64,000 nucleotides of DNA from a virus, in the IMG/VR virus record IMGVR_UViG_3300042923_001106, positions 64,001 to 128,000 of that record; one strand, given 5' to 3'. The position numbers and the translations under genes are program-made. This document shows positions 1,031 to 58,999 of this stretch, one piece after another. Each line of letters begins with the position of its first letter. Within the stretch, counting starts at the first letter, position 1. The notes beneath the pieces are model-generated. The model did no database searches, was not told the origin of the DNA, and worked only from the letters and a program-made list of their open reading frames with translations.

Positions 1031-1258
1031 GTGGTGAAGAAGATGAACACAATAATTGAACTTAAGAATGTGTGGATCAATAAGTCATCAACTAAAGAAG
1101 ATTTTTATTTCTGGAGTGCTCGGTATTTAAGTGGAAAGTACGGTGAGGATTATCAGAAAGCAGCGAGAGAAATTGGTGAAATGATTGTAGAACTTCAACT
1201 TACTCGAATCCAATCAAACAAGATTTGGGCAAAAGCGAAGGCGATGCATTCAAGATGA
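1031..1258 (+). CDS. Hypothetical phage protein
   Basis: ORF downstream of promoter; stop lies inside a junction motif. Confidence 0.6.
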   Translation: MVKKMNTIIELKNVWINKSSTKEDFYFWSARYLSGKYGEDYQKAAREIGEMIVELQLTRIQSNKIWAKAKAMHSR

Positions 1259-1289
1259 AATAATCCTTTCAATTGGGAGATGATGAAAC

Positions 1290-1481
1290 ATGGCAAAGAA
1301 ACCGAAATGCAAAGTGTGTGATCGTGAAATTGACACTAGAAAATACTCGCATTATAAATTCGGCCATGACTTCGTGTGTTATGTTGAAGCCACAGAGGAT
1401 TGCGTTGTTCAATACACTGGACAACATTTCAGAGAAAAGGGCGATGGATCTGGTCGTTTGAGTGGTGATGATTATGAGTAG
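1290..1481 (+). CDS. Small CxxC-containing hypothetical protein
   Basis: RBS GGGAG; CKVC...C...C motif. Confidence 0.55.
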   Translation: MAKKPKCKVCDREIDTRKYSHYKFGHDFVCYVEATEDCVVQYTGQHFREKGDGSGRLSGDDYE

Positions 1482-1803
1482 GATAACAATCAAGGAATAT
1501 AGAGCGTCCAAAGGCGGAGATTACGATTGTTATAAGTTATCTAACGGTCAAAAGTATTGGTTATGGCTAAAGGCTCCCTTTAGAGGTGGGGATGCGGCAC
1601 TTGTACATATAGTTACGGACGACGACAAAGAGGTTGGGACTGTGTTCCTAGAGAAAAACATCAGCAGCGTGAGGATGGGCTTTGAGGGAACAGGTAAATT
1701 AATTGAGGTTCCGATAACAGTAATGCAAGATGTTAGGCCGAATAAGAAGTATTACTTTGATAAGATTGTAAGAAACCTATTAATAAAGGAGATGAATCAT
1801 TGA
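1462..1803 (+). CDS. Hypothetical protein
   Basis: ORF overlapping both neighbours (coupled); true start may be ATG 1474. Confidence 0.6.
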   Translation: MVMIMSRITIKEYRASKGGDYDCYKLSNGQKYWLWLKAPFRGGDAALVHIVTDDDKEVGTVFLEKNISSVRMGFEGTGKLIEVPITVMQDVRPNKKYYFDKIVRNLLIKEMNH

Positions 1804-2225
1804 GCACACTTGAACAAGCAATAATCGTCGCTGCCGATGGGCATCAAGGTCAATATGATAAAGCCGGACTACCGTACATATTCCATCCATTACGAGTAAT
1901 GATGGCTTTAACCACCGAAGAAGAACAGATCGTTGGGGTATTGCACGATGTTCTAGAAGATACGGTTATTACAGAAGATAGGTTAAGGTACTTCGGATTT
2001 TCTGAATTGATTATCGAGGCTGTGAAAAGCGTGACAAGACGTGAAGGAGAAAGTTATTCAGTATTTATTCGTCGGTGTAAGGAAAATGAAATCGGTGTAA
2101 AAGTTAAGATCGTGGATCTGAAGGATAATATGAACATCTCTAGGATTCCCAATCCGTCTCAAGAAGACTTCAGACGGATTGAAAAATACAAAAAGGCACT
2201 AGCAATATTGCTTGACGAAGAATGA
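1800..2225 (+). CDS. HD-domain small alarmone ((p)ppGpp) hydrolase-like protein
   Basis: AADGHQGQYDKAGLPYIFHPLRV, LHDVLEDT and VKIVDLKDN are RelA/SpoT/Mesh1 hydrolase motifs; no synthetase domain. Confidence 0.85.
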   Translation: MSTLEQAIIVAADGHQGQYDKAGLPYIFHPLRVMMALTTEEEQIVGVLHDVLEDTVITEDRLRYFGFSELIIEAVKSVTRREGESYSVFIRRCKENEIGVKVKIVDLKDNMNISRIPNPSQEDFRRIEKYKKALAILLDEE

Positions 2226-2551
2226 AACGAATCTTTTATTGAGAGAGGATGAATAAAAAAAAATGAAACTGAAATTCGTGCAAACTCCACATAATTCCAT
2301 TCGGGTATGGATGCTATTCGATGAGGATCATAAAGATGTAATGATAAAATCGAGAGAATTTAACTTTTTCCAATTCATCTGAATATGGGGTGGATTTGAC
2401 AAAGTGGAAAGAGACATGTTTTCGTGGGAATTACCATTGTCGATAAAAGATTATATCAAGAAAAAATTCGCCCATTACCCAGATTGCCAAATCAATATAT
2501 TGTGATTAATATAAAAATGTGAGTTCAATTGAGAATGGGTGAGCTGGACGA

Positions 2552-2965
2552 ATGAACGCTAAGGGGTATCGTCACACGTTGGATGATTTAATTAAGGCAG
2601 AAGTTAAAAAAAGAAAACAAAACATCGTTAGCAATGCTTCTGTGCAAGGAGTTATGCAGGATTTGGCTGATTACTGCAAAATAACAACTGATGCAATTTA
2701 TAATTATAGAAAACATAAAGCCATTCCTCTATTAGCTATAGCTTACAGAATGGCTGAGTATTTTGGAGTAACTGTTTTGGAATTGTACCAAATCGAAAAT
2801 TACGAAACAGCTTTAGGCAAAAGAAATGAACAGGGAATAGGTAGAGGGAGGAAAAAAGAAGATTATAATAAGAATTGCAGAGAATGTGGTGAAATTGGTT
2901 ATGCGAAAGGCTTTTGTTTGAAGCACTATCAACAGCACAGAAGATTCAAATTAAATAAATTATGA
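2552..2965 (+). CDS. XRE-like HTH protein with C-terminal Cys/His motif
   Basis: DLADYCKITTDAIYNY...IAYRMAEYFGVTVLELY HTH pattern; CRECG...KGFCLKHY tail. Confidence 0.65.
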   Translation: MNAKGYRHTLDDLIKAEVKKRKQNIVSNASVQGVMQDLADYCKITTDAIYNYRKHKAIPLLAIAYRMAEYFGVTVLELYQIENYETALGKRNEQGIGRGRKKEDYNKNCRECGEIGYAKGFCLKHYQQHRRFKLNKL

Positions 2966-2971
2966 TTCAAG

Positions 2972-3241
2972 TTGCGTCTATTATCAAAAATGCTAACAGA
3001 AGACGAACTAAATAAAATGAATATTTTAATGGGAGATGAAAAAATGACAAAGCAAAATTATACACTGAAAAACGGTAAGTCAATAACTGTAGGTACTCAA
3101 AACTTCATAAATGGAACTATTCCAGTAATTATCAATGGGAATATGAAAATGAATCATACTATGGTTCAGGATTCAAATGGAGACCTAGGATTTTGGTGTG
3201 ACGGTGAGTTTGTATATTTTAGAGATTTAAGCAGTCAATGA
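2972..3241 (+). CDS. Hypothetical protein
   Basis: ORF ending in a junction motif; true start probably ATG 3043 after GGAG. Confidence 0.5.
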   Translation: MRLLSKMLTEDELNKMNILMGDEKMTKQNYTLKNGKSITVGTQNFINGTIPVIINGNMKMNHTMVQDSNGDLGFWCDGEFVYFRDLSSQ

Positions 3242-3278
3242 ATGGATTCTTTTATAATCCAAGTGGAGGAGATATAGA

Positions 3279-3539
3279 ATGTCTGAGAAAAACCCTTTAA
3301 TTAGTCTATATGGCGATGATGCATTTAACTTAGTTTTAATAGAAGTGAAAGAGTTAGCAGTAAATTCAAATATTCCATTCGATAAAAAGTATGTTGATTT
3401 AGGAATATCATTCTTGATGATGAAGGCTAAGGATGCAATTGAAGGAAAGAGGAAGCGAGGTAGTTTACGCCAGTTAGTATGCGAAAGTTTCGGAGAAGCT
3501 GCTATGTTCAAATACAATGTTAATGATGGAGTATTATAA
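3279..3539 (+). CDS. Hypothetical protein
   Basis: Strong RBS GGAGGAG; flanked by junction motifs. Confidence 0.65.
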   Translation: MSEKNPLISLYGDDAFNLVLIEVKELAVNSNIPFDKKYVDLGISFLMMKAKDAIEGKRKRGSLRQLVCESFGEAAMFKYNVNDGVL

Positions 3540-3764
3540 GAGCAAATGAAAGAAGTATTTTAAGAGGTGATGAAACGAAAAATGAAAAACGTAAAAGAAA
3601 TGAATCCTGCTGAACTTATTGATGAATTAGAGACACTTACATTGAAACGATGGAATGCAAACTACACAGAAGGCTATAGACTTGATAATCGGTTAAGAGA
3701 ACTTAGAATTGAAATGATGGAGAGAATGAAATAAGTCATTTATTTGGAAAGGTGAGTTATAAAT

Positions 3765-4157
3765 ATGAATGTTTACAAAAGCCTTGGAGAAATTGTGAGT
3801 GATTATAATGCGGGTGTCTACAAGAGTACGCTGCCTTATCCTACCGGCAGATTTAGAGAGGATCATGTCTTTGATGAAGACCAATCAATAAAATGGAATA
3901 AAGATGAGGTTGTAAGAAGAAATAGCGAATACGACCAGAAAAGAAATGAGTACCGTGCTGATAACAATAGATTAGATAAGTTACTCAAAGATGATGTAAC
4001 TTACAACTTGATTTATGATTTTGACTTGAATCAAGAACAGGCCGAATATACTTATGACATTGCATATACTGAAAAGCATTCTAGTATGACTGACGTATTC
4101 TATTATGCGGTTGAATTAGCAGAGTATTTTGTGAAAATGAAAGTACTTGAAAGATGA
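3765..4157 (+). CDS. Hypothetical phage protein
   Basis: RBS AAGGTG; acidic composition typical of the array. Confidence 0.65.
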   Translation: MNVYKSLGEIVSDYNAGVYKSTLPYPTGRFREDHVFDEDQSIKWNKDEVVRRNSEYDQKRNEYRADNNRLDKLLKDDVTYNLIYDFDLNQEQAEYTYDIAYTEKHSSMTDVFYYAVELAEYFVKMKVLER

Positions 4158-4473
4158 TAAAAGAGCGATTTTAATGGGAGGTGTGTTAGAGGATACGGAT
4201 TGCCCGATTGATTTTGATTATAACAGATGCTCTTCAAAGGACTTCGGTTTGCAGTGTGATACATGTGTTCATGCTCCAGAGTTTCAAATTTATCAGCACG
4301 GTCTAATGTGGGTTGTATCAGACGATAAATACATTGCAACCGGCAAGACAAGAGATGGAGCAATTGACAACTTCATTGAACTATTAAATAAAGAGTATGC
4401 TCGGTTGAAGCAAAAGGTCGATCAGGATATTCAAGAATCAAGAACGAAGCATCGGAAACTATGGAATTACTGA
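4147..4473 (+). CDS. Hypothetical protein
   Basis: ORF followed by a junction motif; start uncertain (GGGAGGTG RBS inside the ORF). Confidence 0.55.
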   Translation: MKDDKRAILMGGVLEDTDCPIDFDYNRCSSKDFGLQCDTCVHAPEFQIYQHGLMWVVSDDKYIATGKTRDGAIDNFIELLNKEYARLKQKVDQDIQESRTKHRKLWNY

Positions 4474-4521
4474 GCAAATGAAAAAGCAATTTTATTTAAT
4501 AAAACTATTCAATATAAATTA

Positions 4522-6210: not shown

Positions 6211-6510
6211 ATGAAACTTGAAAAGTACCTTGAGGAAAACCATCCTGATGTGCTTGGTCAATATCGTGCATTTATTAGAAAAGATACACTTCCCAAAATC
6301 GGGGCTACTGTAAAGACCATTCGAGGTGGATTTGGTGACTGGAAGGGTGGACGGCATCTTAGAGTTGTAGGTTATGGATATAAGGGAGAGAAAAGTGGTG
6401 GCGCGTCATGGGGAGATAACTTCATCGTCTTAAGAGGGGATAGTCGGAAGGATGAGTACCTTTCAAGAATGGACGAATGGTGGAATGACTTTGTTATTGT
6501 GAATGAATGA
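6211..6510 (+). CDS. Hypothetical phage protein
   Basis: RBS GGGAG. Confidence 0.6.
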   Translation: MKLEKYLEENHPDVLGQYRAFIRKDTLPKIGATVKTIRGGFGDWKGGRHLRVVGYGYKGEKSGGASWGDNFIVLRGDSRKDEYLSRMDEWWNDFVIVNE

Positions 6511-7004
6511 AATCACTATTTCATCGGAGGAATATGATGGAACAAATTAGCAAATACCACTATAAAACTTACGTAGGTTTCAAAGAGGATAATGGATATA
6601 GAATGAGTTGGAATTCAAGTCATCCAGATCTTGAGCCAACAGAAACATTCAGTTTAGGTTATACAGATGTTTATTGTGTCTATTGTTGTGGTCAAGCGTA
6701 TCCAATTCAAGCAGGACTAAAAGGAGTTGTATACGGCTACACCAAAAACTATGATGTGACCGGTTATACATGTATCTGTGAAGCAGCCGAGAATGAAAAG
6801 TTACAAAGAAAAGAATTGAAGGAGTTACAAGAAAGACATAAAAAAGAAGAATTAGAACTGATGAGAAAGTTTCAACCACTTCTAAAGCAGGATAAACGGA
6901 AACGTCTTGAATTGAAGCATAAACGAGAATTGTATGAGCTTGAAAATGATGAGAAATACGAAAGACAGATGTCGTTGAGAAGTAATGAAGTAGTTAGGAA
7001 ATAA
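6507..7004 (+). CDS. Hypothetical protein with Cys cluster and coiled coil
   Basis: YCVYCC...CIC motif; stop lies inside a junction motif. Confidence 0.6.
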   Translation: MKSLFHRRNMMEQISKYHYKTYVGFKEDNGYRMSWNSSHPDLEPTETFSLGYTDVYCVYCCGQAYPIQAGLKGVVYGYTKNYDVTGYTCICEAAENEKLQRKELKELQERHKKEELELMRKFQPLLKQDKRKRLELKHKRELYELENDEKYERQMSLRSNEVVRK

Positions 7005-7024
7005 AATCGGTATTTTATCGAGAG

Positions 7025-7228
7025 GTGATAATGAAAATGAGTGATGAACAGGTGGCGTCACTATATAAATTTTATGTTAAAGAGACGATACGGTTGCTCA
7101 ACATTAAATGTAGAACCAAAAATAGAAGAATTAAATTTAAACTATTTGCAAGGATTATGAAATTAAAAGATAAATATGATTGGACTTATGATGAGATTTA
7201 TAGACGTAGACTATTACAATTCAAATGA
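7025..7228 (+). CDS. Small basic hypothetical protein
   Basis: Exactly bracketed by junction motifs at 7001 and 7225. Confidence 0.55.
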   Translation: MIMKMSDEQVASLYKFYVKETIRLLNIKCRTKNRRIKFKLFARIMKLKDKYDWTYDEIYRRRLLQFK

Positions 7229-9053
7229 AATTTGTGTTTCATCTTACGATTTAAAATAAAATAAACCAAAGGGAGAACTAGTAAATGGAATTTAAACAAT
7301 TCAAAGAAATGCTGCAAACAAATTTTCAACAAATGTCGAAAGAAGTAACACACTTATTTGAAGTGAACTTGGATAAGGATGAACTCTGGAACTTGTACTT
7401 AGACAGTTTTCCAGATGGAACTAATTTGATTTTCAGAGAACGAAGAGAATATGACTGTTCTTGCTGTAGACAATTTGTAAAAAATATTGGCAATGCGGTT
7501 GTGATCAAGAACAATAAAGTAACGACCATCTGGGATTTCGAGACGGATGATGTTAAATTTCAACCTGTTCTTGATGCGCTATCATCGTTTGTCAAATCTA
7601 AAGTTGTTTCTGACGTATACATTAGCAAATTTAAGAAAATGGGAACAGATAAAAATTTCGAAGAGGTTAACGGTGGTGCAAAGGAATGGCAACATCTTTA
7701 TCTTGAACTACCTGATAAGTATGTAGATAAAAGTTCGCGTTCTGAGGGTGACATTAAGGGAACTTACCGTGACACGAGAAACGTCTTCAAAAGATCCTTA
7801 GATGAAATTACTGAAGAAAGTCTTCTGACCGTGTTGGAACTCATTTCACAAAACTCGCTCTATAAGGGTGAAGAGTGGAAAGCAGCGTTAACAGAGTTCC
7901 ACAAGCATAAAAAAGAATACGATAAACTCCAGACACAACAAGAGAAGTCAAATTATGCTTGGGAGCAATCCGTAAAAGTTGGTGGCGCTATTGGCAGAAT
8001 CCGAAACCATAGCATGGGCACATTGTTGATTAACCTGAGCGAAGGAATGGATCTTGATACAGCCGTCAGGAAGTATGAAGTAATTGTTGCTCCGTCCAAT
8101 TACAAAAGACCGAAAGCAATCTTTACTAAGAAAATGTTGGATGATGCAAAAGAAACATTGCAACAACTTGGATATATGAATTCTCTTAATCGGCGTTTTG
8201 CCACTCTCGACGATATTACAGTGAATAATATCCTTTTCTCCAACAAAGATTCTGCGAAGCGAATTAGCGGCTCCGACGTGTTCGATGAAATGTTGGGCGA
8301 AGTTGCTATTAATCCGAAGAAATTTTCTAAAGTTGAAGAGATCCCGATTGAAGCATTTATCAAAGAAGTGCTGCCGACATCTAAGGAAGTCGAGGTTTTC
8401 CTAGAAAACAAACACTCTAACAACATGGTTTCCTTGATTGCTCCAGAGAATAGGGATGATAAAACTATGTTTAAATGGGGAAACGGTTTTAGTTGGGCAT
8501 ACTCTGGAAACATTACCGACAGTGCAATGAAAGAGCGAGTGAAGTCGGCAGGTGGCAATGTAGAAGGTGTATTGCGGTTCTCGATTCAATGGAATGACGG
8601 AAATTTCAACGGTAATGATTTCGACGCTCACTGTATCGAGCCAAGTGGCAATCAAATTTATTACGGTAGCAAGAAAAACTGGGCCACTACTGGTGAATTG
8701 GATGTAGATATCATTCGTCCCGAAAGAAGCAAGCCAGCAGTTGAAAATATTACATGGACAAATAGAGATAAGATGGCAAAGGGAACTTATAAATTCTTTG
8801 TTCACTGCTACTCTAACAATGGCGGTCGGGATGGATTTAAGGCAGAGATCGAGTTCGGTGGACAAATTTATTCGTTTGAATACAACAAAGAACTTCGTCA
8901 AGGTGAGAAGGTGCATGTTGCAGAAGTTAATTTCGATCAAGATGGGTTTACAGTTAATGAAAAACTGCCTTCCAATGTATCATCTCGCGACATTTGGAAT
9001 GTAAAATCGAATCAATTTGTTCCGGTTTCGGTCGTCATGTATTCGCCTAACTA

Positions 9054-11542: not shown

Positions 11543-11806
11543 ATGACAAAAGATGAATGTAAACAAAAATATTGCGAGTTTATTGATTCACTGACTACAG
11601 AAGAATTTCAAAGATATTTAGATGATGATGACGAATATCCTGATTTCTTTTATGGGCTACACTCAAATGTTGAAGACCTAGCTACTGTACTTGTAAGAGA
11701 AATAGATAATAACAAAAGACCAATAGAGATCATCTTATATCCTAAAAATATTCATGGTGAGTTAGAGTTTGCAATTGATATTTGGCACAAATATGAAAGC
11801 AAATAA
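11543..11806 (+). CDS. Acidic hypothetical protein
   Basis: RBS AAGGAG; stop lies inside a junction motif. Confidence 0.6.
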   Translation: MTKDECKQKYCEFIDSLTTEEFQRYLDDDDEYPDFFYGLHSNVEDLATVLVREIDNNKRPIEIILYPKNIHGELEFAIDIWHKYESK

Positions 11807-11833
11807 AATTCGTAATTCATAGGAGGAGTTTAA

Positions 11834-12379: not shown

Positions 12380-12502
12380 GGTTATCAAATAAAATCCGCA
12401 TTTTATAAAATAAAAATATAGAGTATTAATTAAATTTGATTAAGAATACCTCTTATACATAACATATCAGTCACCTTAGAGAATGACAAAAAAATCAAAG
12501 AG

Positions 12503-16193: not shown

Positions 16194-16224
16194 AAGAAAG
16201 AACTGTTTTATCTGGGAGGATGAA

Positions 16225-16680
16225 ATGGAATCGTTGAATGGACTGTTCCTAGAAAAAATGAAAATGTTAGTTCATTGCCATACTGGTCTGCCTCTAATAG
16301 AATTTGATAATGACTACTACGAAAAAACCACAATGTTTATGGGTTATAACTTTGGTGAAAAACTTATAGCATATAATCTACCAATGTACGAACTTAATAA
16401 GAGTCAAATTCCTGAATTAGCACATCTTTCATTAGAGGAGTTTTTTGAAATAGCAGTTTATCACGAAATAGGACACCATCTTGATTACATTGCAAACCCG
16501 AATAGGAAGATATACAGAGAAATGCATGTTAACGATGCGACCAATGAGTTTATTCTTGAAGGTGAACTCAATGCTTATAAATATGGTAGGGATCTTGTGC
16601 CCGACTCCCTAATAAGTTATTACGATATTTTGAACCAATTCAACATAGAGAAGTACAATGAAGTGGCAAATGAAACCTGA
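16225..16680 (+). CDS. Putative HEXXH zinc metallopeptidase (ImmA/IrrE-like fold)
   Basis: AVYHEIGHHLD plus downstream ELNAYKYG. Confidence 0.65.
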   Translation: MESLNGLFLEKMKMLVHCHTGLPLIEFDNDYYEKTTMFMGYNFGEKLIAYNLPMYELNKSQIPELAHLSLEEFFEIAVYHEIGHHLDYIANPNRKIYREMHVNDATNEFILEGELNAYKYGRDLVPDSLISYYDILNQFNIEKYNEVANET

Positions 16681-16918
16681 ATTTCATTCTCAGTTTAAAA
16701 AAGAAATGAGGACTACAAATATGAAGTTTTCAAAAGAAGAATTAGAAGACATGGAAAATGCGATTGATATCGATGTGGAAACAAATAAGGCTTTCTGTCC
16801 TCGTTGTGGTACTGAAATATTAATAAGACAAGAATTTAATAAATGCCCAGATGTAGCGTGTGGGTGGAGACAGTACATGAGAAATAAAAAGACTAGCGAA
16901 AAGTATTATGGTTCTTAA
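16658..16918 (+). CDS. Zinc-ribbon protein
   Basis: CPRCG...CPDVACGW. Confidence 0.5.
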   Translation: MKWQMKPEFHSQFKKEMRTTNMKFSKEELEDMENAIDIDVETNKAFCPRCGTEILIRQEFNKCPDVACGWRQYMRNKKTSEKYYGS

Positions 16919-16976
16919 TTAATGGATCGAGGCTATGAAAACTGACTTTTATCAGTTGGCAAGGAGGTATTTTTAA

Positions 16977-17984: not shown

Positions 17985-18272
17985 TTGAAATTGTCCACAT
18001 CATTAGTTGTTCTTCTAGTAATTTTCATTATCGTTATCTTTATTTTCGGAAAATCGAATAAGCGGCGTTTTGGACGTAGGGGATATACAAAGGGCTACAA
18101 TAGAAATAGTTATGATGAAACAAGACAACAAAGAGAACAAGAAAGGACCATCAGATATTTGGAAAGGCAGCAAGAGAGAGAAGAAAGATATTCAAAGAGG
18201 CATGGCCAAAGTTATAATTTTCGGAACAATAAGTCTAAATTTGGTCAAACAAACAAGAGCAGATTTAAATAA
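17985..18272 (+). CDS. Single-pass membrane protein with R/Q-rich tail
   Basis: N-terminal hydrophobic helix; bracketed by junction motifs. Confidence 0.6.
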   Translation: MKLSTSLVVLLVIFIIVIFIFGKSNKRRFGRRGYTKGYNRNSYDETRQQREQERTIRYLERQQEREERYSKRHGQSYNFRNNKSKFGQTNKSRFK

Positions 18273-18302
18273 AAGGTCAATTTCATGTGATGGGGTGATA
18301 AG

Positions 18303-18590
18303 ATGAAGCAATCTGACTATAATCGAGCAGCAAGAAAAATTGCCAGAGCGAATGCTGCTTTATGGGATGCTATTGGTCTAATTAACGAAGCATTATCAGA
18401 TCCAGTTATCAGTAAACTCCTTGAGGAACATGATAATGACAAACAAAAACTTTTTGAGAAGTTAGCTACTGCTTATGAAAAGATCAATAAGAAGTATGAT
18501 GGTTTTATAGATGCTGGAATGCATGGTAGAGATATTGATGATTTTGATAATTTTACAACCAAGTTTGCGGAAGTGTTGGAAACCGAATAA
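18303..18590 (+). CDS. Hypothetical protein
   Basis: Exactly bracketed by junction motifs at 18269 and 18587. Confidence 0.65.
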   Translation: MKQSDYNRAARKIARANAALWDAIGLINEALSDPVISKLLEEHDNDKQKLFEKLATAYEKINKKYDGFIDAGMHGRDIDDFDNFTTKFAEVLETE

Positions 18591-18639
18591 AATGTCAGTT
18601 TCATTTTTTTAAGTAACAGTAAATTAAAGGAGTAGGTTT

Positions 18640-18909
18640 ATGAAACAGACAGTAGCTTTAACCGTATTGTTGGGAATTCTCTCATTAATTATTATCGGAT
18701 GCTCTACCACACAACAGACAAAACAATTTATAGAAGTTCGTGTCAATAAGGATATGGTAACTCTTAACATCGATCATATAGTAAGTATTCAACCTAACGG
18801 CGATAATGGAGCAGTTATACTAATGGATACGTCAAATGGCATGAATGGCGGACACTTGAATATATCTGAAAGTTACGATGTAATTATTAAACGATTATCC
18901 AAACAGTAA
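18640..18909 (+). CDS. Putative lipoprotein
   Basis: Signal peptide ending LIIIG-C (lipobox-like). Confidence 0.6.
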   Translation: MKQTVALTVLLGILSLIIIGCSTTQQTKQFIEVRVNKDMVTLNIDHIVSIQPNGDNGAVILMDTSNGMNGGHLNISESYDVIIKRLSKQ

Positions 18910-18940
18910 GATGAAGTAAATAAAAAATCCATTTCATTAG

Positions 18941-19429: not shown

Positions 19430-19481
19430 TATAGATTATGAAAAGTTCATTTTATAATCTCTTAATTGGAGGCGTTGTTGA

Positions 19482-19902: not shown

Positions 19903-20373
19903 ATGAAATACACCTATGATTACTTTAGCAGAAATCGTGAGATTACACTAAGAAAATTATTAAATATTGAAGGTTCATATTCATCCATTTCAATCCGCGA
20001 ATTTTATGGAGAAGGTAAAAACCCAAATGAAAATCGCGCTATAAACTCTCTAGATCGAGGATTGTATATAATACAAAAGGGCAATTCCAGTGCTTCTGTT
20101 GATGATCTATTGAATTGTAACTTTAGTGATATTTTAAAAATAAGGAATGCTGGTAAGGGCTCTCATATAATTATTTTGAATGGAATTCTCGATTATTTTA
20201 AACTTGGGAAAATTATCGATGAACCAGAATTAATACGGTCGTACAAATGTGAAATAGATAAATTGATCCAGAGTTGTGATAATGACTCGTTAAAAGAAAT
20301 TATTTATTTACTTTTTGAAGAGCTGTCAATTATTGAAGCAGAAAAAGCATTAAGAAAAATAAAAGACAAGTAA
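19903..20373 (+). CDS. Protein with an RNA polymerase alpha-CTD-like domain
   Basis: RAINSL...SVDDLLNCNFSDILKIRNAGKGS aligns by eye with the alpha-CTD motif RxxNCL...TVxDLL...LLKIRNxGxKS. Confidence 0.55.
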   Translation: MKYTYDYFSRNREITLRKLLNIEGSYSSISIREFYGEGKNPNENRAINSLDRGLYIIQKGNSSASVDDLLNCNFSDILKIRNAGKGSHIIILNGILDYFKLGKIIDEPELIRSYKCEIDKLIQSCDNDSLKEIIYLLFEELSIIEAEKALRKIKDK

Positions 20374-20415
20374 TGAAAATACTATTTTATTTCTTTCTAT
20401 AGAAAGGAATTTTAA

Positions 20416-21018
20416 ATGAAGAGAATTAGTTTCAAAACGGGGTCAATAATTGGGTCTATATTATTGCTTTCTGCTTGTTTAGTTTCAGGTATATGGGCCT
20501 TCCAGAGTAGAAATGAAATCAAACAACTAAAAGTGTCTTTGCAGAGTAAGGAGAATGCTTTAGTACAATCTGAGGAGAAAATTATAAATATTCAGAACCA
20601 AAATCTAGAGATCGCTGAGTTATTTGAGTTTCTTTCAGAAACCCAAACCACAATGAATCTTGGGAAAAAGATGGTTAGTGATATCAATTCGCAAAAAGTT
20701 GGTGAAATCGATTTTAATAAGTACACTTATCCCACAGAGAAACGAATAGAGCTAGTCGATGCTTTTGTTAACTACCAAAAGAAGTACACAAAAGATCGAT
20801 TAGAAAAAATCTATATACAAATCGGGCAAAAAGAAGAGGAAGTATCTAAACATCAAAAAATGATTGAAGATTATCTTAACTTTGCAGTAAATTTCAGGGA
20901 CCGAAAGAATGAACCTTTAGGAATCTTGCGGCTTAATGATCTTTTAGCAGCTCTACAAGTAGAAAAAGCTATCTCAGCAACTCAAGAAAAAATTCATGGT
21001 CTACTGCAAAATAAGTAA
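20416..21018 (+). CDS. Membrane-anchored or secreted coiled-coil protein
   Basis: N-terminal hydrophobic helix; bracketed by junction motifs. Confidence 0.6.
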   Translation: MKRISFKTGSIIGSILLLSACLVSGIWAFQSRNEIKQLKVSLQSKENALVQSEEKIINIQNQNLEIAELFEFLSETQTTMNLGKKMVSDINSQKVGEIDFNKYTYPTEKRIELVDAFVNYQKKYTKDRLEKIYIQIGQKEEEVSKHQKMIEDYLNFAVNFRDRKNEPLGILRLNDLLAALQVEKAISATQEKIHGLLQNK

Positions 21019-21057
21019 ATGAAAAGACTCTTTCATGGGGAAGTAGGAGGTGCATAA

Positions 21058-22407: not shown

Positions 22408-22434
22408 CGGTTTCATTGAGAGGTAGGGTTAATA

Positions 22435-23768: not shown

Positions 23769-23832
23769 AGAGATAAAGATTTTTGAGCAATTCCGATGAG
23801 AACATGCTTTTATCTGATAAAAGGTTAGGAAG

Positions 23833-25526: not shown

Positions 25527-25563
25527 AACAACAATTTCAATTGATTGTAAAGGAGTATGAAAT

Positions 25564-26876: not shown

Positions 26877-26984
26877 AGCGATATAGCCACTACACTATTT
26901 AAGTGGAACCCAGAGATGTCAGTTTCGTACCTTTTTGACTCAATTAGGAGCAATAAAATAGCGTTTTTATAGGAGGGAAATAAA

Positions 26985-37744: not shown

Positions 37745-37757
37745 AATATATTTTTTA

Positions 37758-38054
37758 TTGGATAGAGAAAAGGAGAATTTGAAAATGGAAAACATTAAAT
37801 TGGTGGCAGAAAAACTTAAAGAAATTGAGGAGTTCGTAAAGAAAAATCTAAGTACTCATTATGATGATGTGCTTGAACATGTTGAATACAAACTAGATGC
37901 CGTGAAACAGATTGCTCAAGCCAACCATATTCCTTTGATCGTTACTGCGGAGGATATTATCAACAAGTACCGTGAAGAAGAAGAATCATCTGAATATGAG
38001 GAAGAGAGTAGTAGTTATTATTATGAAGAAGAATCATCTTATTATGAAGAATAG
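37758..38054 (+). CDS. Hypothetical protein with E/S/Y low-complexity tail
   Basis: EEEESSEYEEESSSYYYEEESSYYEE; true start probably TTG 37778. Confidence 0.55.
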   Translation: MDREKENLKMENIKLVAEKLKEIEEFVKKNLSTHYDDVLEHVEYKLDAVKQIAQANHIPLIVTAEDIINKYREEEESSEYEEESSSYYYEEESSYYEE

Positions 38055-40108: not shown

Positions 40109-40145
40109 TCGGGGAATAAAATAATGTTTTTATTAGGAGAAGGTA

Positions 40146-40847: not shown

Positions 40848-40887
40848 ATGAAATTGGACATTTATTTGGAATAAGAGGGTAGATAAC

Positions 40888-41154: not shown

Positions 41155-41200
41155 GACCAATGAAACTGGAGTTTCATTGGATGATAAATCGGAGGATCAT

Positions 41201-41390
41201 TTGAGACTAGATATAATGACTGATATTGAAACACTAGGGACTAAACAAGACGCAACAATCTTTCAAATCTCTGCTGTAGCGTTCGATATCATGACTGGAG
41301 AACACATTTCAACATTCAATCAGATCGCTGATATTGAGAAGAATGCTATTGTACGTGTAGACGGCTCAACAATTAAATGGTGGCTGAATA
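41201..41390 (+). pseudogene. DEDDh 3'-5' exonuclease (DUF5051-like), truncated by an IS1634 insertion
   Basis: MTDIETLG...IFQISAVAFD...STIKWW, then an abrupt switch into IS sequence. Confidence 0.8.
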
Positions 41391-41898
41391 CTAACAACTC
41401 ACATTCCGCACCCCTATGACTCTAAAAATGGCGAATTTTGGTGTATGCTAGAGTCATAGAAATGAGAGTCGGGAGCGAAGTGTGGGCATGCAAATCGAAA
41501 ATTTTTATGAAGTCGGCTATCTTCCTTTACTAAGCGGAATCATGAACGATTTGGGACTCCGCAAGAAGATCGATCAATTTGTACCTGTCGATTCGCAGTG
41601 TTGGACTACTGCAGGCGAAGCCGTCCAGTTGTTGTTGCTCGACATGCTGAGCGGTCGAAATGCCCTGATGAATGTAGACAAATGGGCAGCGGAGCAGGAC
41701 TTGGATCAACTGCTCCGCCCCGGTCTGCAAGCGTCCTGGTTCAACGATGACGCACTCGGCCGCCATTTGGACCGGCTGTATGAGGCGGATATCCATCAAA
41801 TCTACTCCGCTTTCCAACTGCACGTGTACCAGCACGAGCGCATCCCGATGGGCGTCTTCCACGGCGATACGACGAGCATGTCTGTCTATGGCGATTAT
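41391..41898 (+). mobile_element. IS1634-family remnant (left end plus transposase N-terminus only; ends approximate)
   Basis: ORF 41482-41916 has a DUF4277-like LGLRKKID...FNDDALGRHLDRL and FHGDTTSMSVYG, then breaks off; high GC; no right end found. Confidence 0.8.
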
Positions 41899-42207
41899 AG
41901 GTCAGGTTATTGTTAAGACACTTATGCAGGGAGCCGGTAGTCTTGTAATTGGTAAACTAAACAAGCAATAAAAGGGTCATTTCATTGCGATAGGAGATAG
42001 AAAATGATTTATTTAGTAATCAAGAGAAAAATATATAATGATACATACACTGTACGTTACGCACTAGTAAATAAAGAATTAGCAGAGAGTTTTGTAAAGT
42101 GGGCAAACCACGACAACCAAGACGAGGATACGGTTTATGAATTATTAGAACAATACGTTATAAAATGATGATGAAATTAAGATTGCATTGGAATAGTAGG
42201 AGGAGAA

Positions 42208-42438
42208 ATGAGTAAAGTTACATTCGGAAATAATATCGGAGCAAAGCAATGGAGTTTCATGCTCGATAAAGAGAATAAGATTCTACATACGGCATGGTTT
42301 CCTCTGATCGAAGTCAATGGAAAGATGGCGACAATTAAGGACGACAATTATCCAGTTGGCATCAAGGAGGCTGAGAGCAGATATAAAGCTAGAAAGATGG
42401 CGCAAGAGTTTTTGAATCGAGTAAAAGAAGAAACATGA
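42208..42438 (+). CDS. Hypothetical protein
   Basis: RBS AGGAGGAG. Confidence 0.6.
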   Translation: MSKVTFGNNIGAKQWSFMLDKENKILHTAWFPLIEVNGKMATIKDDNYPVGIKEAESRYKARKMAQEFLNRVKEET

Positions 42439-42469
42439 AGAAATATGATTTCGTGGGAAGAGGTGTAAG

Positions 42470-42742
42470 GTGATTAATAATAAGCCAACAAATGAGGAAT
42501 TGATAAAGTGGAAACAACATCTTCAAGAACTGGACGATGAAAAGTACCCAATTGCAATAGCTGCGGTAATGGAGTCCAAAGAGAAATATACAGAAGGTGA
42601 AGCATATACTTCTGTATATTTCTTGCAAAGAAAAGTAAGAGTAGGATACTCGCAAGGTCAACGACTCATCGAGCGTATGGTACAAGATAATATTCTTCAA
42701 CCAGAAATAAAAGAGAATTATATAAGGTACAAGATCCGATAA
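42470..42742 (+). CDS. Protein with an FtsK gamma-like winged helix
   Basis: SVYFLQRKVRVGYSQGQRLIERMVQDNIL matches the FtsK gamma pattern SxSxLQRxxRIGYxRAxRLIxxL. Confidence 0.65.
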   Translation: MINNKPTNEELIKWKQHLQELDDEKYPIAIAAVMESKEKYTEGEAYTSVYFLQRKVRVGYSQGQRLIERMVQDNILQPEIKENYIRYKIR

Positions 42743-42796
42743 AAGGTAGATTGCATAAGAAAAGGAACTGCCAAGTACGACAGCTCCAATCAGATA

Positions 42797-42910
42797 TTAC
42801 TTAAAGAAGAATCCTATGATACTCGCAAGACTCAGTTTGAATCGGAATTTCTTGGTTTCTGTGGTCTTATTCGGTTCTTTTACGGTTGTTCTCTCGTAAA
42901 CATATTCCAT
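42797..42910 (-). CDS. Small antisense-strand peptide, 37 aa
   Basis: Manual translation MEYVYERTTVKEPNKTTETKKFRFKLSLASIIGFFFK; GAGGGGG RBS; hairpin plus U-run downstream on the minus strand. Confidence 0.55.
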   Translation of the reverse strand: MEYVYERTTVKEPNKTTETKKFRFKLSLASIIGFFFK

Positions 42911-43354
42911 ATCTTTATCCCCCCTCGCAAACTAATTATCGTTGTCTCACTCTATATAGTTGCAACGAGAGGGTAAATTATTCAATTTGGCAGACCTAAT
43001 ATTGTTCAAGGTTGTTCAGGTACTTTTATTATAGATGATAAGCGATTTTCCGTACACTATTAAAATTCAATACAAGTTAGTTGCATATAAGAGATTTGAT
43101 CAGTATTTGTATTGCGTTTCCGAAGAAGGTTTGAAACTTCTTGAGAGGATTTTTGAAGTGAGGATTACTGAGCTAGAATAGCCCATTAAAATACGGGCTT
43201 CATGGGGTGAGAAAAATGAAGTTGGGATATGCAGTAGTAGGTAAGTTATATGGAGAACCGTGGGAGAGCATGATTTACGAGGATGCTGAAGAATGTGATA
43301 GTGCTTATCGCGATCTAGTTAACGACAGTGATTATAGTGACTTAAAGAGATGTA

Positions 43355-43681
43355 ATGTTTATATCCATTACGAAGAATGGCGATGAAAGACGGATTTTAT
43401 TTACTAGCGAAATAGGAAAAAATCACTGGAGGGAGTCTATGATAGGCAAGATTTCAGTAAGAGGCTGTATCGTTGCATTATCTGATGGTAACCTATCTGG
43501 ACCTAGTGTACGTGTCTATTCATCAGACAATAGAATTATTCTTGATAGATATTATACACAAATGTCCACCGCAATCGAACAGTACGGATACATCTTACTA
43601 TCTCTATATGAGGGAATCGATTCATTCAGGTTAACGTCTAAAGTGTTGCCAAGTGACAACATCAAATGGGCTAGCATTTAG
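43355..43681 (+). CDS. Hypothetical protein
   Basis: ORF followed by a junction motif. Confidence 0.5.
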   Translation: MFISITKNGDERRILFTSEIGKNHWRESMIGKISVRGCIVALSDGNLSGPSVRVYSSDNRIILDRYYTQMSTAIEQYGYILLSLYEGIDSFRLTSKVLPSDNIKWASI

Positions 43682-43726
43682 AAAACAAATGAAAATTCAT
43701 TTTCATTTGCCGGGAAGGATGATGCA

Positions 43727-45054: not shown

Positions 45055-45091
45055 TTTATGCAAATAAAATGTTAGTTTAATTGGAGGAAGT

Positions 45092-45334
45092 ATGGGAGAG
45101 AACAATTTGACTTTGATTATTGGGGATGATTGGGAAGGCATTTATCACGATGGACTACTGATTTATGAGGGACATGAAGTGCAAAGAAGAGAGTTAGTAA
45201 ACTTAATGAAAAGCCATGAAACATTTAATGTGGAATTTAAAGCGCTCAATGATATGGGGATTGATTGGTTGCATGAGGAAGGAAGTTTACCTGAATACAT
45301 ATCTGGAATCCCATATCAGTGTATCGAGCAATAA
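45092..45334 (+). CDS. Hypothetical protein
   Basis: Exactly bracketed by junction motifs. Confidence 0.6.
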   Translation: MGENNLTLIIGDDWEGIYHDGLLIYEGHEVQRRELVNLMKSHETFNVEFKALNDMGIDWLHEEGSLPEYISGIPYQCIEQ

Positions 45335-45359
45335 AACCTGTATTTCATAGGGAGGAAAA

Positions 45360-46811: not shown

Positions 46812-47363
46812 ATGAGTAAATTCTTTACTGATTTGAAGGAAGTTTTAATCAATGCAGGTAGTCAAAACAATATTAATGCTTGCGGGTATTATAATGCACT
46901 CCTTCAAAATAGTAATATGCTGGATGAAATCATTGAATCATATAAAATAAACAATATGTATATAACATGGCATCCTGATGATACCGGTGATTACACTGAC
47001 GGTTTGATTCTAATTTCGTTTAGAGATTATCGCGATGGAAATTTCAAGTATAAAATACAACTTACATCGGAGCAGTCATGGGACGGATATTGTGAGTGTA
47101 CTCCTGAAACACCGCACTACAACCCAAAATATGATTGTTCGGGATACTGTGACTGGTATATCCCAACATTTTCAATTGAAAAACACACAGATATTGGACA
47201 TGAGAAATTTAAAGGTTATGCAAAAGATATGTGGGAATTAGACGCTCAATGGCAAGAAGAACTTGGAATCCACGAAGATGATAAAACAGCTGAACAAATT
47301 GCAAATATTAATCTTCAAATTGAACAACTTCTGAAGCGTAAAGAGGCGCTTAGAAATAAATAA
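46812..47363 (+). CDS. Hypothetical phage protein
   Basis: Bracketed by junction motifs. Confidence 0.65.
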   Translation: MSKFFTDLKEVLINAGSQNNINACGYYNALLQNSNMLDEIIESYKINNMYITWHPDDTGDYTDGLILISFRDYRDGNFKYKIQLTSEQSWDGYCECTPETPHYNPKYDCSGYCDWYIPTFSIEKHTDIGHEKFKGYAKDMWELDAQWQEELGIHEDDKTAEQIANINLQIEQLLKRKEALRNK

Positions 47364-47389
47364 ATTCGTGATTTCATTGAGGAGAGAAA

Positions 47390-47719
47390 ATGAAAAAGAT
47401 ATTTTTTGACATTGATAATGGAGAAGTAGTGAAACCGAGAAATATCACAGCGCCAGCATATTTAGCTGTGATAGAAGATGAAAGTTTAAAAATTACCGAA
47501 CTGTACTCATGTTTTAGCAAATTTAAGCTTGAAGCATACGGTTATAAGTGGGAGAATGCTATGCTTCATCAGGATTGTTTTGAGTGGGTTAACTATTCAT
47601 GGTTGATGAAGAGTTTACGAAAATATATATTGTTGATTGCGAAGCGCAGTGATAAAGATGACTATGAAGATGAGTATAGAGAGCATTATAGGTATTTGAG
47701 ATTCTGGAAGAGGCATTGA
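47390..47719 (+). CDS. Hypothetical protein
   Basis: Exactly bracketed by junction motifs. Confidence 0.6.
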   Translation: MKKIFFDIDNGEVVKPRNITAPAYLAVIEDESLKITELYSCFSKFKLEAYGYKWENAMLHQDCFEWVNYSWLMKSLRKYILLIAKRSDKDDYEDEYREHYRYLRFWKRH

Positions 47720-47749
47720 AATTGTAATTTTATAAAGAGGTGTATTTGA

Positions 47750-48288: not shown

Positions 48289-48327
48289 ATAAAATAGGAA
48301 ATTTATCTGCCGAGCAAGGAGGGAGTA

Positions 48328-50047: not shown

Positions 50048-50092
50048 AATAAAAGAGTATTTTCATTGACCTAAGAATAGGGAGGAAACGAG

Positions 50093-53443: not shown

Positions 53444-53498
53444 TGCTCAATAATGGTCAATAAAAGAGACATTTTATTAGATGAAAGCGAGGTGAAAG

Positions 53499-57019: not shown

Positions 57020-57036
57020 TCCTCTAAGGGAGGAGC

Positions 57037-58116
57037 ATGATGAGTGATGTTCTAACAGAAATAAGAAAAAAATTGTTACAAGATGACAATATACATACAT
57101 TGCTTGAAAAGGCAGAGTGTGAAAATATAAAACGTCGAAGCAACAGGTATGAAGCAACGTTGCCAAGCAGGTTTAATTCAGATAACGATAGAGCCGTGCA
57201 AGTGTATTTAAATGAATCAATAACCTGTAAAATAAGAAGTCGAACCTTTTTAGGAAAAGGTATTTATGACTTAATTTCATATATTGTATTTGGATGTATA
57301 GAAATAAAAGAAATAAATAAATGCCTTCCGAAATCAAAAAGATGGATTTGTGAGCAATTGGGTTTTTTTGAGTATCTAAATAACTCATGGTATCATGAAA
57401 AGCCAAAGGAAGACCCGTTAAAATGGTTAAAAGATTTAAAGAGGAAACGAAACAAGGAAATTAAGATAATTGAAAATACCGTGCTAGATGATACTGTATT
57501 TAATCAGTACATTATGTATCCTTACATTAATTATTTGAAAGAAGGCATCGACTATAACACGCAGCTCGAGTTTCAAATCGGTCTTGACCTAGTTAGTGAA
57601 CGCGTAATCTTTCCTATACATAATAAATACGGAGACTTGATTGGAATAAAGGGTAGAACTCTAGATCCAGATTACAAAACTAAAAAAATCCCGAAGTTTA
57701 TGCATTTATATAATGTAAATATGATTTCCGAGCTGTACAACTGGCATCGCGCGCTTTACTACATAATGGAGCAGAAAGAAATCATATTTTACGAAGCTGA
57801 AAAAACTTGCTGGCTAAGTACTCAATGGGGATATAGAAATTGCGTTGCTTTGGGGAGCAGTGAGATAACCGAGTGGCATGTCCAGATGGTCAAGGAACTT
57901 GGCTTAGATATCCGAATCGTGTTGGGTTACGACAAAGATAAGGAAGCAAAGGAAATAAAGGAAGCAGCTAAGATGTTTGGATTCACTCACTCAATCAACG
58001 TTATGTGGGATGGGAGGAATGCATTTTCTGCAGAGAAGAAGCACTCTCCAACGGATTTAGGCAAAGATGCATTTGACCAACTATACAATGACAGGTATAA
58101 ATACAAAATAACATGA
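57037..58116 (+). CDS. DNA primase (TOPRIM), SPbeta yorJ-like
   Basis: RVIFPI, IGIKGR, IIFYEAEK, VLGYDKD, D.TD motifs. Confidence 0.85.
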   Translation: MMSDVLTEIRKKLLQDDNIHTLLEKAECENIKRRSNRYEATLPSRFNSDNDRAVQVYLNESITCKIRSRTFLGKGIYDLISYIVFGCIEIKEINKCLPKSKRWICEQLGFFEYLNNSWYHEKPKEDPLKWLKDLKRKRNKEIKIIENTVLDDTVFNQYIMYPYINYLKEGIDYNTQLEFQIGLDLVSERVIFPIHNKYGDLIGIKGRTLDPDYKTKKIPKFMHLYNVNMISELYNWHRALYYIMEQKEIIFYEAEKTCWLSTQWGYRNCVALGSSEITEWHVQMVKELGLDIRIVLGYDKDKEAKEIKEAAKMFGFTHSINVMWDGRNAFSAEKKHSPTDLGKDAFDQLYNDRYKYKIT

Positions 58117-58144
58117 CAAATAAAATCGATATTTCATTCAATGG

Positions 58145-58183
58145 TAGCAAGCACAACTTGGAAAATAGTGCTTGCTATTCTTT
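58145..58183 (+). terminator. Intrinsic terminator after the primase
   Basis: TAGCAAGCAC...GTGCTTGCTA-TTCTTT. Confidence 0.65.
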
Positions 58184-58378
58184 GTATCTTGATATAAAAT
58201 AAAAGTATGAAATAAACTAATTGATGAGGAGGCGGACTAAATATTCGATGTTTGTCTGGTGGATCATTGGAATATGTATTTACTTCTGTTTAGTAGTACT
58301 TATCGCAAAATGCTGTGGAGGAAATACAACTTTCGATTATAAAATAAAACATAATAATACATATGGGGAGAATGAGCG

Positions 58379-58711
58379 ATGAAGTTGTATCAATTGGGCA
58401 AAGGGGTATATAAAACTTACCGGGAAACAGTTAAAGGGAATCAAAATATCACTCCACAACAAGCACAAAAGAAATTGACTCGAAACATTATACTGGCTTT
58501 TAAAGTTTCAAAAAGCAATAATGAAAATTTAAAGCAACGGTACTTCTATGGTAACTTGCACATACTCGTAGTTGGAAATAAAATCGTCTGGATCAAAAAT
58601 ATTAAGCAGAATGGCAACTGGTTTTATAAGGATCAGAAAAAGTATGATGAATTGAATGTGCTGCTTGGTATTGAAAATGATTCTGAAACTATTAATCAAA
58701 GAGTCAGTTAA
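58379..58711 (+). CDS. Hypothetical phage protein
   Basis: RBS GGGGAG. Confidence 0.6.
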   Translation: MKLYQLGKGVYKTYRETVKGNQNITPQQAQKKLTRNIILAFKVSKSNNENLKQRYFYGNLHILVVGNKIVWIKNIKQNGNWFYKDQKKYDELNVLLGIENDSETINQRVS

Positions 58712-58726
58712 TAAGAGGGAGAAAAC

Positions 58727-58957
58727 ATGAGTGAGGCACTAAAAAATGCCCTATACGATGTAGTAGAAAAAGCAAAGAAATACGATGCGATTATACATCT
58801 TAGAAAAAATGGAGAAATCCATTGTGATTTTTGCGGTAAGTGTCAATGCGATGTTAAGAAGTTAGTAGCTGGACCAAGAGTTTTTATTTGCGACGAATGC
58901 ATAGAACTATGTGTTGAAGTTATTAAAGAAGAGAAAGTGAATGAGGAAGACAAATAA
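58727..58957 (+). CDS. Stand-alone ClpX-type C4 zinc-finger protein
   Basis: HCDFCGK...[27 protein letters not shown]. Confidence 0.9.
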
Positions 58958-58999
58958 AATTATGCTTTCATTGAAGAAAGGGGCGCCTATTGGAAAAAT

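Follow-up and report, generated by a model that had tools for sequence, protein, structure and literature searches.

Phage mosaics break exactly at gene borders, an old open question that is usually answered by random illegitimate recombination followed by selection or by sporadic 'linker' homologies. More regular exchange is known elsewhere. Tyrosine recombinases act on inverted arms around a 6–8-bp centre, and with the loxP/lox and FRT variant sets used for recombinase-mediated cassette exchange only identical centres recombine, giving ordered replacement between two different sites. Integron attC sites are imperfect inverted repeats of 57–141 bp that are defined by folded single-strand structure. 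Here we analyze an 18-bp palindrome, ATRAAA-N6-TTTYAT, that recurs at gene junctions in a 64,000-nt stretch of viral DNA (the window), which comprises bases 64001–128000 of the 183,208-bp virus record IMGVR_UViG_3300042923_001106; contig coordinates below refer to that record. With arms of 6–7 bp and a 6-bp centre, the palindrome has the geometry of a recombinase core site. Its distribution in this phage and its relatives tips the balance, by a modest degree, towards reading the palindromes as fixed, ordered and centre-specific ("barcoded") crossover joints through which SPbeta-like phages would swap genes.

A palindrome at gene junctions of SPbeta-like phages

The record is a large SPbeta-like Paenibacillus phage, because about 26 of its proteins match SPbeta in a tblastn search against the whole SPbeta genome (tape measure, YomM, YopP, YopQ, YopR, YorF, Sak4-like YorG, polymerase, dUTPase, YotM and large serine integrase among them) and because the nearest homologues of the repressor encoded at window 28993–29991 lie in Paenibacillus prophages (50–58% identity), with one Logan contig at 95%. 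Plus-strand genes fill contig 43.8–169 kb and form the early/accessory block, and a minus-strand late block encoding very large tail-type proteins runs from contig 169 kb round the end to 42 kb. No near-identical DNA was found in the phage collection, and a pattern scan of viral_contigs and genome_contigs returned no close repressor relatives.

The window contains 37 exact copies of the palindrome against 0.29 ± 0.64 expected (100 dinucleotide shuffles, maximum 4), together with 24 one-mismatch copies, about 20 of which lie at gene junctions. These values bear out an initial annotation of the window, which had counted 34 exact and about 20 near-exact copies and expected fewer than one exact copy in 64 kb. 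Across the whole contig there are 76 exact copies (0.8 expected) and 48 one-mismatch copies (15 expected), about 33 near-exact ones being counted as real, and two-mismatch copies occur at chance (131 against 157 expected). A logo of the 76 exact copies adds one symmetric base per side, A at −1 in 55/76 and T at +18 in 44/76, and reveals nothing else at a fixed distance, specifically no −35 or −10 element. Our literature searches found no published description of the palindrome.

Placement along the genome is equally regular. In the plus-strand early block, 107 junction copies fill 100 of 234 gene junctions, usually 10–30 nt upstream of the next start codon; median site spacing is 570 bp and half of the stretches between neighbouring sites contain just one gene. 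The late block carries only five copies, and the few copies that lie among minus-strand genes keep the same geometry of stop codon, site and ribosome-binding site (RBS) in the reversed direction. The earlier claim that the left arm supplies the upstream stop codon describes a real but mild effect, as 46 of 107 copies end an open frame of 40 codons or more with the arm's TRA (TAA or TGA), where frame alone would give one-third. The site-free gaps described in the same annotation are real: no copies occur at window 27443–32787, the regulator/Agr block, or at 32806–37740, and sites are missing from co-adapted modules, namely the replication genes, the regulator block and almost the entire structural block.

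We examined the arms for signs of base pairing. The R and Y positions vary independently (A..C 25, A..T 22, G..T 17, G..C 12; Fisher p = 0.35), the commonest combination, A..C, cannot pair, and the centre lacks self-complementarity. Because R and Y vary independently, it is the arm sequence of duplex DNA that is read and not a hairpin, and the absence of arm covariation rules out a hairpin in RNA or single-stranded DNA. Half-sites that are identical and independent of each other in how they are read are the signature of a two-fold symmetric protein on duplex DNA, and we infer that such a protein is the reader. It is therefore very improbable that the palindrome is an RNA signal, that is, a short hairpin or a pair of single-stranded words acting in processing, stability or translation before each RBS. 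Such a signal would suit the constant placement between stop codon and next RBS along the direction of transcription, and the scarcity of promoters in the array makes long transcripts likely, but the A..C mismatch would fall in a 6-bp A/U stem that is barely stable anyway, conservation of unique centres between genomes would be left unexplained, and the same geometry among minus-strand genes fits a symmetric DNA site at least as well. A promoter or terminator is likewise ruled out, since across window 11–28 kb, which includes about 28 sites, promoter-like sequences number 65 against 67.7 expected and terminator-like sequences 7 against 5.6.

The motif is restricted to phage DNA and extends across the family. 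In the 5.8-Mb genome of P. medicaginis, 41 of 44 exact copies fall inside a 150-kb prophage and three in the remaining 5.65 Mb. The motif is some 250 times denser in prophage than in host DNA. The P. lutrae genome, which retains a mere prophage remnant, stands at background level with 8 copies against 6 for the control pattern. SPbeta itself carries 34–36 core copies (TAAAA-N6-TTTTA, 34 against 2.8 expected, or 36 against 3 for a control pattern) as well as 14 complete 18-mers (0.5 expected). They too fall at gene junctions, and the left arm frequently contains the stop codon; examples are found at yoqG, yoqS, yoqY, yorT, mtbP, yosC, yosF and yosR. The core palindrome is also enriched in Geobacillus virus E3 (42 against 10 for control) and Alicyclobacillus phage KKP_3916 (14 against 1). 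A site for a host factor is ruled out, as the host chromosome has no motif beyond background, and a host factor with a host regulon is an unlikely reader. The reader must be something that these phages have in common, even though their repressors are just 29–35% identical.

Private centres conserved by position between relatives

The initial annotation had noted that the 6-bp centre is almost always different, and this extends to the whole genome: among 124 centres no two are identical, no two are reverse complements of each other and none is palindromic (P for all three being zero = 0.0014 by letter shuffling). We compared these centres with those of a close relative of 30 kb, L002+L015, in which L002 is the Logan contig encoding the 95% identical repressor, and with a distant relative, the P. 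medicaginis prophage, whose repressor is 54% identical and whose DNA has almost no similarity to the phage. The close relative has 17 exact centres in common with this phage against a null of 2.0 (maximum 8 in 2,000 shuffles); 16 of the 17 are collinear and there are no reverse-complement matches. Nine of the common sites are islands, lacking blastn or tblastx homology within 300 nt on either side, and per-position identity at these islands falls to background exactly at bases −1 and +19.

Centre identity thus persists where the genes do not. Four consecutive sites, 25523, 25877, 26102 and 26307, have their centres in order in L002 (6344, 6540, 6830 and 7110), and the single genes between them are non-homologous to L002 and differ in sequence and length. 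At nine junctions that retain one homologous flank, 0/54 centre positions differ beside an adjacent 150 nt that is 80% identical (P ~8e-6), and the R/Y positions of the same nine junctions differ in 10/18; the private centres are better conserved than the adjacent genes. Homologous genes found at other positions are flanked by unrelated centres, which ties the centre to its position instead of to the gene: it is an address, not cargo. At the greater distance of the P. medicaginis prophage, 16 exact centres are held in common against a null of 5.3 ± 2.2 (maximum 13), about 11 of them collinear, and the centres of window sites 3012, 3238 and 3546 recur consecutively with different spacing and different genes.

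Two trivial sources of these matches were considered. A favoured repertoire of centres is ruled out as the cause, as no duplicates occur within the genome. An assembly artefact in the Logan contig is unlikely, because the NCBI genome G001 and GenBank phages show the same pattern; Logan is a 31-mer assembly, in which an 18-bp repeat with different centres cannot mis-join 31-mers.

Homology between relatives ends at the sites. Blocks common with L002 extend through the centre of a site and stop at its outer edge, and single genes between two sites are replaced. This agrees with the initial annotation's expectation that gains and losses in relatives would break at the motif. Its recombination-site reading holds in so far as homology starts and stops at the outer edge of the 18-mer and single genes are replaced, and needs revision in that the changes amount to ordered replacement, not free capture or reordering. 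The annotation had named displaced breakpoints and equal motif density in host core DNA as grounds for giving that reading up; because relatives break at site edges and host DNA is nearly motif-free, neither ground is found in the sequences.

A similar pattern appears in the SPbeta model family. Phage Goe14 has 9 of 13 centres in common with SPbeta (null 0.46). A site edge also forms an end of the yopZ–yoqC indel, of the yoqR–yoqS indel and of a 1.2-kb insertion. Seven SPbeta-type genomes lose their homology to SPbeta at the final base of the SPbeta site 116414–116431, a break that may descend from one event.

Conserved arms and constant placement could also mark places where a dimeric DNA-binding protein of the phage docks to regulate or organize the early region, in the form of a stoperator-like roadblock, a silencer, or a ParB- or DndB-like loading site, for instance for the YopQ homologue. 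Crossovers would then be a by-product, the sites being the sole 18 bp conserved between genes that are otherwise unrelated. We regard this as unlikely. The strictly conserved, symmetric arms with independent half-sites fit it well, as do the position just upstream of the RBS, the confinement of copies to the early block, recognition kept across genera, and the DndB-like protein that stands beside the repressor in every relative examined. A docking site does not, however, predict the absence of centre changes beside 80% identical flanks, 124 unique and asymmetric centres, or collinear centres where both neighbouring genes have been replaced; a global silencer should cover the replication and regulator operons, which have no sites, and the promoter and terminator counts above reveal no link to either element.

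The sites are distributed through the window as follows. One-mismatch copies at 927, 1255, 3012, 3238, 3546, 3726 and 4157 (927..4174) are interspersed with an exact copy at 2222..2239, whose centre also occurs in the P. medicaginis prophage but out of order. Exact copies then follow at 4478..4495, at 6507..6524 and 7001..7018, where the upstream stop codon lies within the left arm, and at 7225..7242, the first and last of these four being plain gene-junction copies. A minus-strand DDE transposase gene at 9081–10652 (523 aa, DUF772 and DDE_Tnp_1_2) lies in DNA with a G+C of 0.44 against about 0.35 and resembles an insertion sequence within the early gene array. Beyond it are a one-mismatch copy at 11803..11820, again with the stop codon in the left arm, and an exact gene-junction copy at 12389..12406. 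Between 13860 and 15924, six exact copies (13860, 14417, 14762, 15171, 15399 and 15907) and a one-mismatch copy (14203) are each separated by a single small gene, followed by 16194 (one mismatch), 16670 and 16935 (both exact) in 16194..16952 and by exact copies 18269, 18587 and 18920 in 18269..18937.

Further along, the correspondence with L002 becomes dense. The exact copy at 19438..19455 is an island whose centre lies at L002:1227 with both flanks non-homologous. Exact copies 20373 and 21019 (20373..21036) enclose one gene, and this site–gene–site unit is a homologous block in L002 (1688–2355) with unrelated DNA beyond both sites. Islands follow at 22399..22416 (exact; L002:2565) and 23796..23813 (one mismatch; L002:4945). 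The four consecutive copies described above occupy 25523..26324, and exact copies 26953 and 27425 (26953..27442) are the last before the site-free regulator block. On its far side, a 5.3-kb block common with L002 stops 3 nt past the exact copy at 32788..32805, and an L002 homology block stops at the outer edge of the exact copy at 37741..37758. The exact copy at 40116..40133 has its centre at L002:19371 and homology on its left flank alone, and a one-mismatch island at 40848..40865 corresponds to L002:19782.

The remaining sites comprise exact copies 41160, 41968, 43383 and 43689 with one-mismatch copies 42171 and 42739 (41160..43706); 45064 (one mismatch) and 45331 (exact, an island) in 45064..45348, whose centres occur in order in the close relative (at positions 26696 and 27659 there); and one-mismatch copies 47360 and 47716 (47360..47733), whose centres stand side by side in the distant P. 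medicaginis prophage. Gene junctions at 48289..48306 (one mismatch), 50049..50066 and 53460..53477 (both exact) are also occupied. The exact copy at 58120..58137 directly follows a primase-like gene, and another, at 58954..58971, holds the upstream stop codon within its left arm. A block at 59400–62520 has raised G+C, many overlapping mini-genes and no palindromes, and copies resume at its borders.

Proposed exchange at same-centre sites and candidate proteins

An account of these sites needs a protein that reads the common arms and a process that needs or preserves the identity of the private centres, and we propose that same-centre recombination would give both. That recombination occurs inside the site and depends on centre identity is what we infer from the sequence comparisons. 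A two-fold symmetric protein would read the identical 6–7-bp arms of the double-stranded site, and exchange between related phages, such as a resident prophage and an incoming phage, would be productive only between sites with the same centre. The stretch between two joints, often one unit of RBS plus open reading frame, would then be swapped for whatever the other phage holds at the same position. Different joints of one genome could not pair, so genes would be neither deleted nor inverted. Under this proposal the centres would be unique within a genome because compatible pairs would delete or invert genes, asymmetric because asymmetry would give each site a direction, and kept between genomes because a mutated joint would lose access to the shared gene pool. 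Same-centre recombination would also account for the absence of sites inside co-adapted modules.

Which protein would act on the sites is a more tentative matter. One candidate, favoured with less than even confidence, is a phage tyrosine recombinase, YomM-like or YopP-like, that would cleave at the borders of the centre. The YomM-like tyrosine recombinase encoded at contig 13680–14663 (minus strand, late block) has all catalytic residues (R, K, HxxR, H and Y) by alignment, supplying the catalytically intact enzyme elsewhere in the element that the initial annotation had proposed to look for, and a YopP-like protein at contig 40338–41378 is a second candidate recombinase. A palindrome at contig 13659–13676, one of the five late-block copies, lies 3 nt past the YomM-like stop codon; in the distant P. 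medicaginis prophage, too, a site close to the homologous gene has this centre. Less probable, and in our judgment doubtful, is a route of short-homology annealing by the phage's own Sak4, YorF and resolvase, in which the phage machinery would use the 18–20 bp of identity and a separate protein, possibly nicking or cutting, would act on the arms. The Sak4-like protein is 59% identical to YorG and, with the YorF paralogues and the resolvase, is among the best conserved early proteins.

The fullest version of the proposal is a natural cassette-exchange system in which a conserved phage enzyme would read the arms of 35–110 sites per genome and rejoin only those with the same centre. We hold this as possible but less likely than not. 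The enzyme would be a YomM/YopP-type tyrosine recombinase or a cutting enzyme that acts within the variable centre to give ends specific to each site, and co-infecting or resident relatives would swap single accessory genes, including defence and counter-defence genes, position for position without scrambling the genome.

Several observations weigh against reading the palindromes as exchange joints. In the YopP-like proteins and in SPbeta YomM a Lys stands where the second catalytic Arg would be, in an alignment at 15–32% identity that is not fully reliable, and a conserved arm of just 6–7 bp is short for a tyrosine recombinase, where 9–13 bp is usual. Some insertions and deletions have only one end at a site. 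SPbeta and this phage have no centre in common (1.8 expected), so the barcodes do not persist at the largest distances. Mosaic boundaries of phages fall at gene junctions anyway, and junctions here consist of little beyond site and RBS; block ends at sites are therefore weak evidence in themselves, and the argument rests on the islands and on centre conservation. In laboratory hybrids of phi3Ts and SPbeta, 15 of 16 crossovers fell in long homology, and the sole non-homologous joint is described as 'following yosA' (bioRxiv 10.1101/2020.05.06.055103). The SPbeta palindrome at 116414–116431 lies about 90 bp from the end of yosA, and by that description the joint would fall near it. Because the hybrids mostly crossed over in long homology, use of the joints, if real, would be a rarer route that matters where flanks are unrelated.

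We also considered the repressor encoded in the site-free regulator block. The protein at window 28993..29991 (plus strand) is a homologue of the MrpR/YopR/SroF repressor family (Pfam PF22822, E = 5e-22; PF22823, E = 4e-19), which has a recombinase fold and is no longer a recombinase. It follows a DndB-like gene, a YopQ homologue, at 27682..28989 (plus strand). In SPbeta, MrpR binds the SPBRE repeat at ten promoters by chromatin affinity purification sequencing, ChAP-seq (PMC10516654), and SroF binds a long asymmetric box of 24–26 bp as a monomer (15-bp motif, 24/26 bp read; bioRxiv 10.1101/2025.11.27.690993). We located the SPBRE decamer AATATGTATA in SPbeta at yonP, yonT, yonX, aimR, yopM, yopV, yorE, yorM, yorZ and yosX, exactly the ten published peaks; the SPbeta palindromes are distinct from these ten sites and were not repressor peaks.

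These comparisons dispose of the palindrome as the operator of the 28993–29991 protein, the equivalent of SPBRE that would silence the prophage gene by gene. A clear MrpR homologue is encoded in the window, inverted arms around 6 bp match recombinase core-site geometry, and SPBRE itself lies near the RBS in some SPbeta promoters, all of which speak for the idea, and the initial annotation had named this protein as a possible binder. We dropped the idea because SPbeta carries both SPBRE and the palindrome as separate sets and because a SroF monomer reads a long, non-palindromic box: the palindrome is not this protein's operator, and we consider the reading extremely improbable. The palindrome is moreover unchanged in phages with divergent repressors, locus L003 of P. 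chitinolyticus has a repressor homologue and no palindromes, and the P. lutrae remnant genome is at background. A second repeat in this phage fits SPBRE better. It is asymmetric, A/T-rich and about 16 bp long. Its core, close to AATAAAATAAA with (T/A)GTAT following, is similar to the SPBRE core of SPbeta (..ATGTAT..), and its copies, some of them in tandem, are placed next to the −35 and −10 elements of strong sigma-A-type promoters or in the space between them (window 953–985; contig 40255, 43115, 43719, 48626/48644 and 148576/148594). Judged by its sequence, this repeat is probably the operator of the phage's MrpR-like repressor and a better SPBRE analogue than the palindrome.

Several other features of this region and of the contig deserve mention. 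Directly 3′ of the repressor pair, window 30153–31923 contains an Agr-like unit made of a membrane protein, AgrB, a 41-aa peptide gene and a LytTR-only protein, with no kinase or receiver; L002 has the same unit, the P. medicaginis prophage has AgrB, and in SPbeta the arbitrium genes lie nearby, upstream of the repressor operon. In host chromosomes of P. chitinolyticus (L003) and P. lutrae (L018) the DndB-like and MrpR-like pair is kept although the rest of the early region is gone; the L018 pair adjoins host genes, and no palindromes lie near either pair. A protein with a DarA C-terminal domain (contig 44506–45888) is encoded upstream of a 1006-aa fusion of N6-methylase and SNF2/DEAD helicase domains (contig 51853–54873), and we take the two to resemble the Dar anti-restriction proteins of phage P1. 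A 916-aa protein at contig 35562–38312 (minus strand) has no Pfam match and aligns by tblastn to the P. medicaginis prophage at 22.5% over 515 aa, and the P. lutrae prophage remnant has an 853-aa gene with PF05183. For the 916-aa protein we suspect the role of the single-chain RNA polymerase of YonO type that SPbeta-like phages have, but a tblastn search of the complete SPbeta genome gave no yonO match for it.

Comparison with known systems

What sets these phages apart is regularity: one phage family on Bacillus, Geobacillus, Alicyclobacillus and Paenibacillus shows an ordered and addressable set of joints. Even without an enzyme, the sites account for the points of entry and exit of accessory, defence and anti-defence genes and give a coordinate system for comparing SPbeta-like genomes. 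If an enzyme is responsible, it would represent a new kind of site-specific exchange and possibly a multi-site tool for genome engineering. SPbeta and phi3T are genetically tractable in B. subtilis, so the proposal can be tested directly.

The initial annotation called the architecture integron-like. A genuine system of that kind would take up single-gene cassettes, release them as circles and shuffle their order by structure-specific recombination at attC-like sites, and some features recall this: one-gene intervals make up half of the inter-site total, a gene with 70% identity in the two phages compared lies between different site pairs, and an additional gene of this phage has a degenerate copy of the site on one side and an intact one, with a similar centre, on the other. 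The label does not fit, and the chance that it describes the system is minimal. The palindrome is an 18–20-bp site defined by fixed arm sequence with no pairing covariation, unlike the long, structure-defined attC, and its centres run in the same order from genome to genome, where free reordering would do the reverse. An attI/Pc arrangement is absent. An integron has one array beside an integrase gene with attI and a promoter, whereas the sites here are spread over 125 kb and the recombinase-like genes at contig 13.7, 40.3 and 93 kb head no array; generic Pfam assignment (PF00589) and one alignment to Xer-like structures identified no integron-type integrase.

Among phage sequences, promoter-early stem-loop (PeSL) cassettes combine an early promoter with a terminator stem-loop and serve homologous recombination. 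The palindrome differs in having no promoter or terminator signal, in being a strict two-fold symmetric 18-mer and in carrying private, ordered centres. In T4-type phages, PeSL are short conserved intergenic motifs repeated through variable regions of small genes, and the end points of insertions, deletions and replacements between relatives fall at the motif as they do at the palindromes here (PMC2839356, PMC4122927). The SPBRE/SroF box is likewise an intergenic early-region repeat, in the same phage family, whose binder has a recombinase fold (PMC10516654; bioRxiv 10.1101/2025.11.27.690993); it is asymmetric, read by a monomer and present at about ten promoters, in contrast to a symmetric palindrome with 35–110 copies per genome that lies away from promoters.

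The stoperators of cluster A mycobacteriophages, bound by L5 gp71, resemble the palindromes as dozens of short sites in the tiny intergenic gaps of a temperate phage. Stoperators are asymmetric, oriented with transcription and all alike, and we know of no private centres or gene-exchange role for them. The boundary or 'linker' sequences of lambdoid phages, invoked in the modular theory of phage evolution, are also short conserved words at gene boundaries that were proposed as crossover points between unrelated modules, but they are sporadic and have no common symmetric architecture.

Closest in geometry are the sites of site-specific recombinases. In the pdif/dif modules of Acinetobacter plasmids, many recombinase-type sites with a 6-bp centre flank accessory-gene modules on a mobile replicon; Xer/dif sites, however, have two different 11-bp arms, for XerC and XerD, and are served by host enzymes, whereas both arms of the palindrome are the same word and the motif is at background in the host. 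The loxP/lox and FRT variant sets pair inverted identical arms with an asymmetric 6–8-bp centre. They are man-made and have 13-bp arms, in contrast to the 6–7 conserved base pairs of the palindrome. By analogy, recombinase-mediated cassette exchange with different-spacer lox or FRT sites appears to be the nearest laboratory counterpart. If the proposed exchange is true, SPbeta-like phages would possess an addressable grid dedicated to recombination, something distinct from integrons, from Xer modules and from general homologous recombination.

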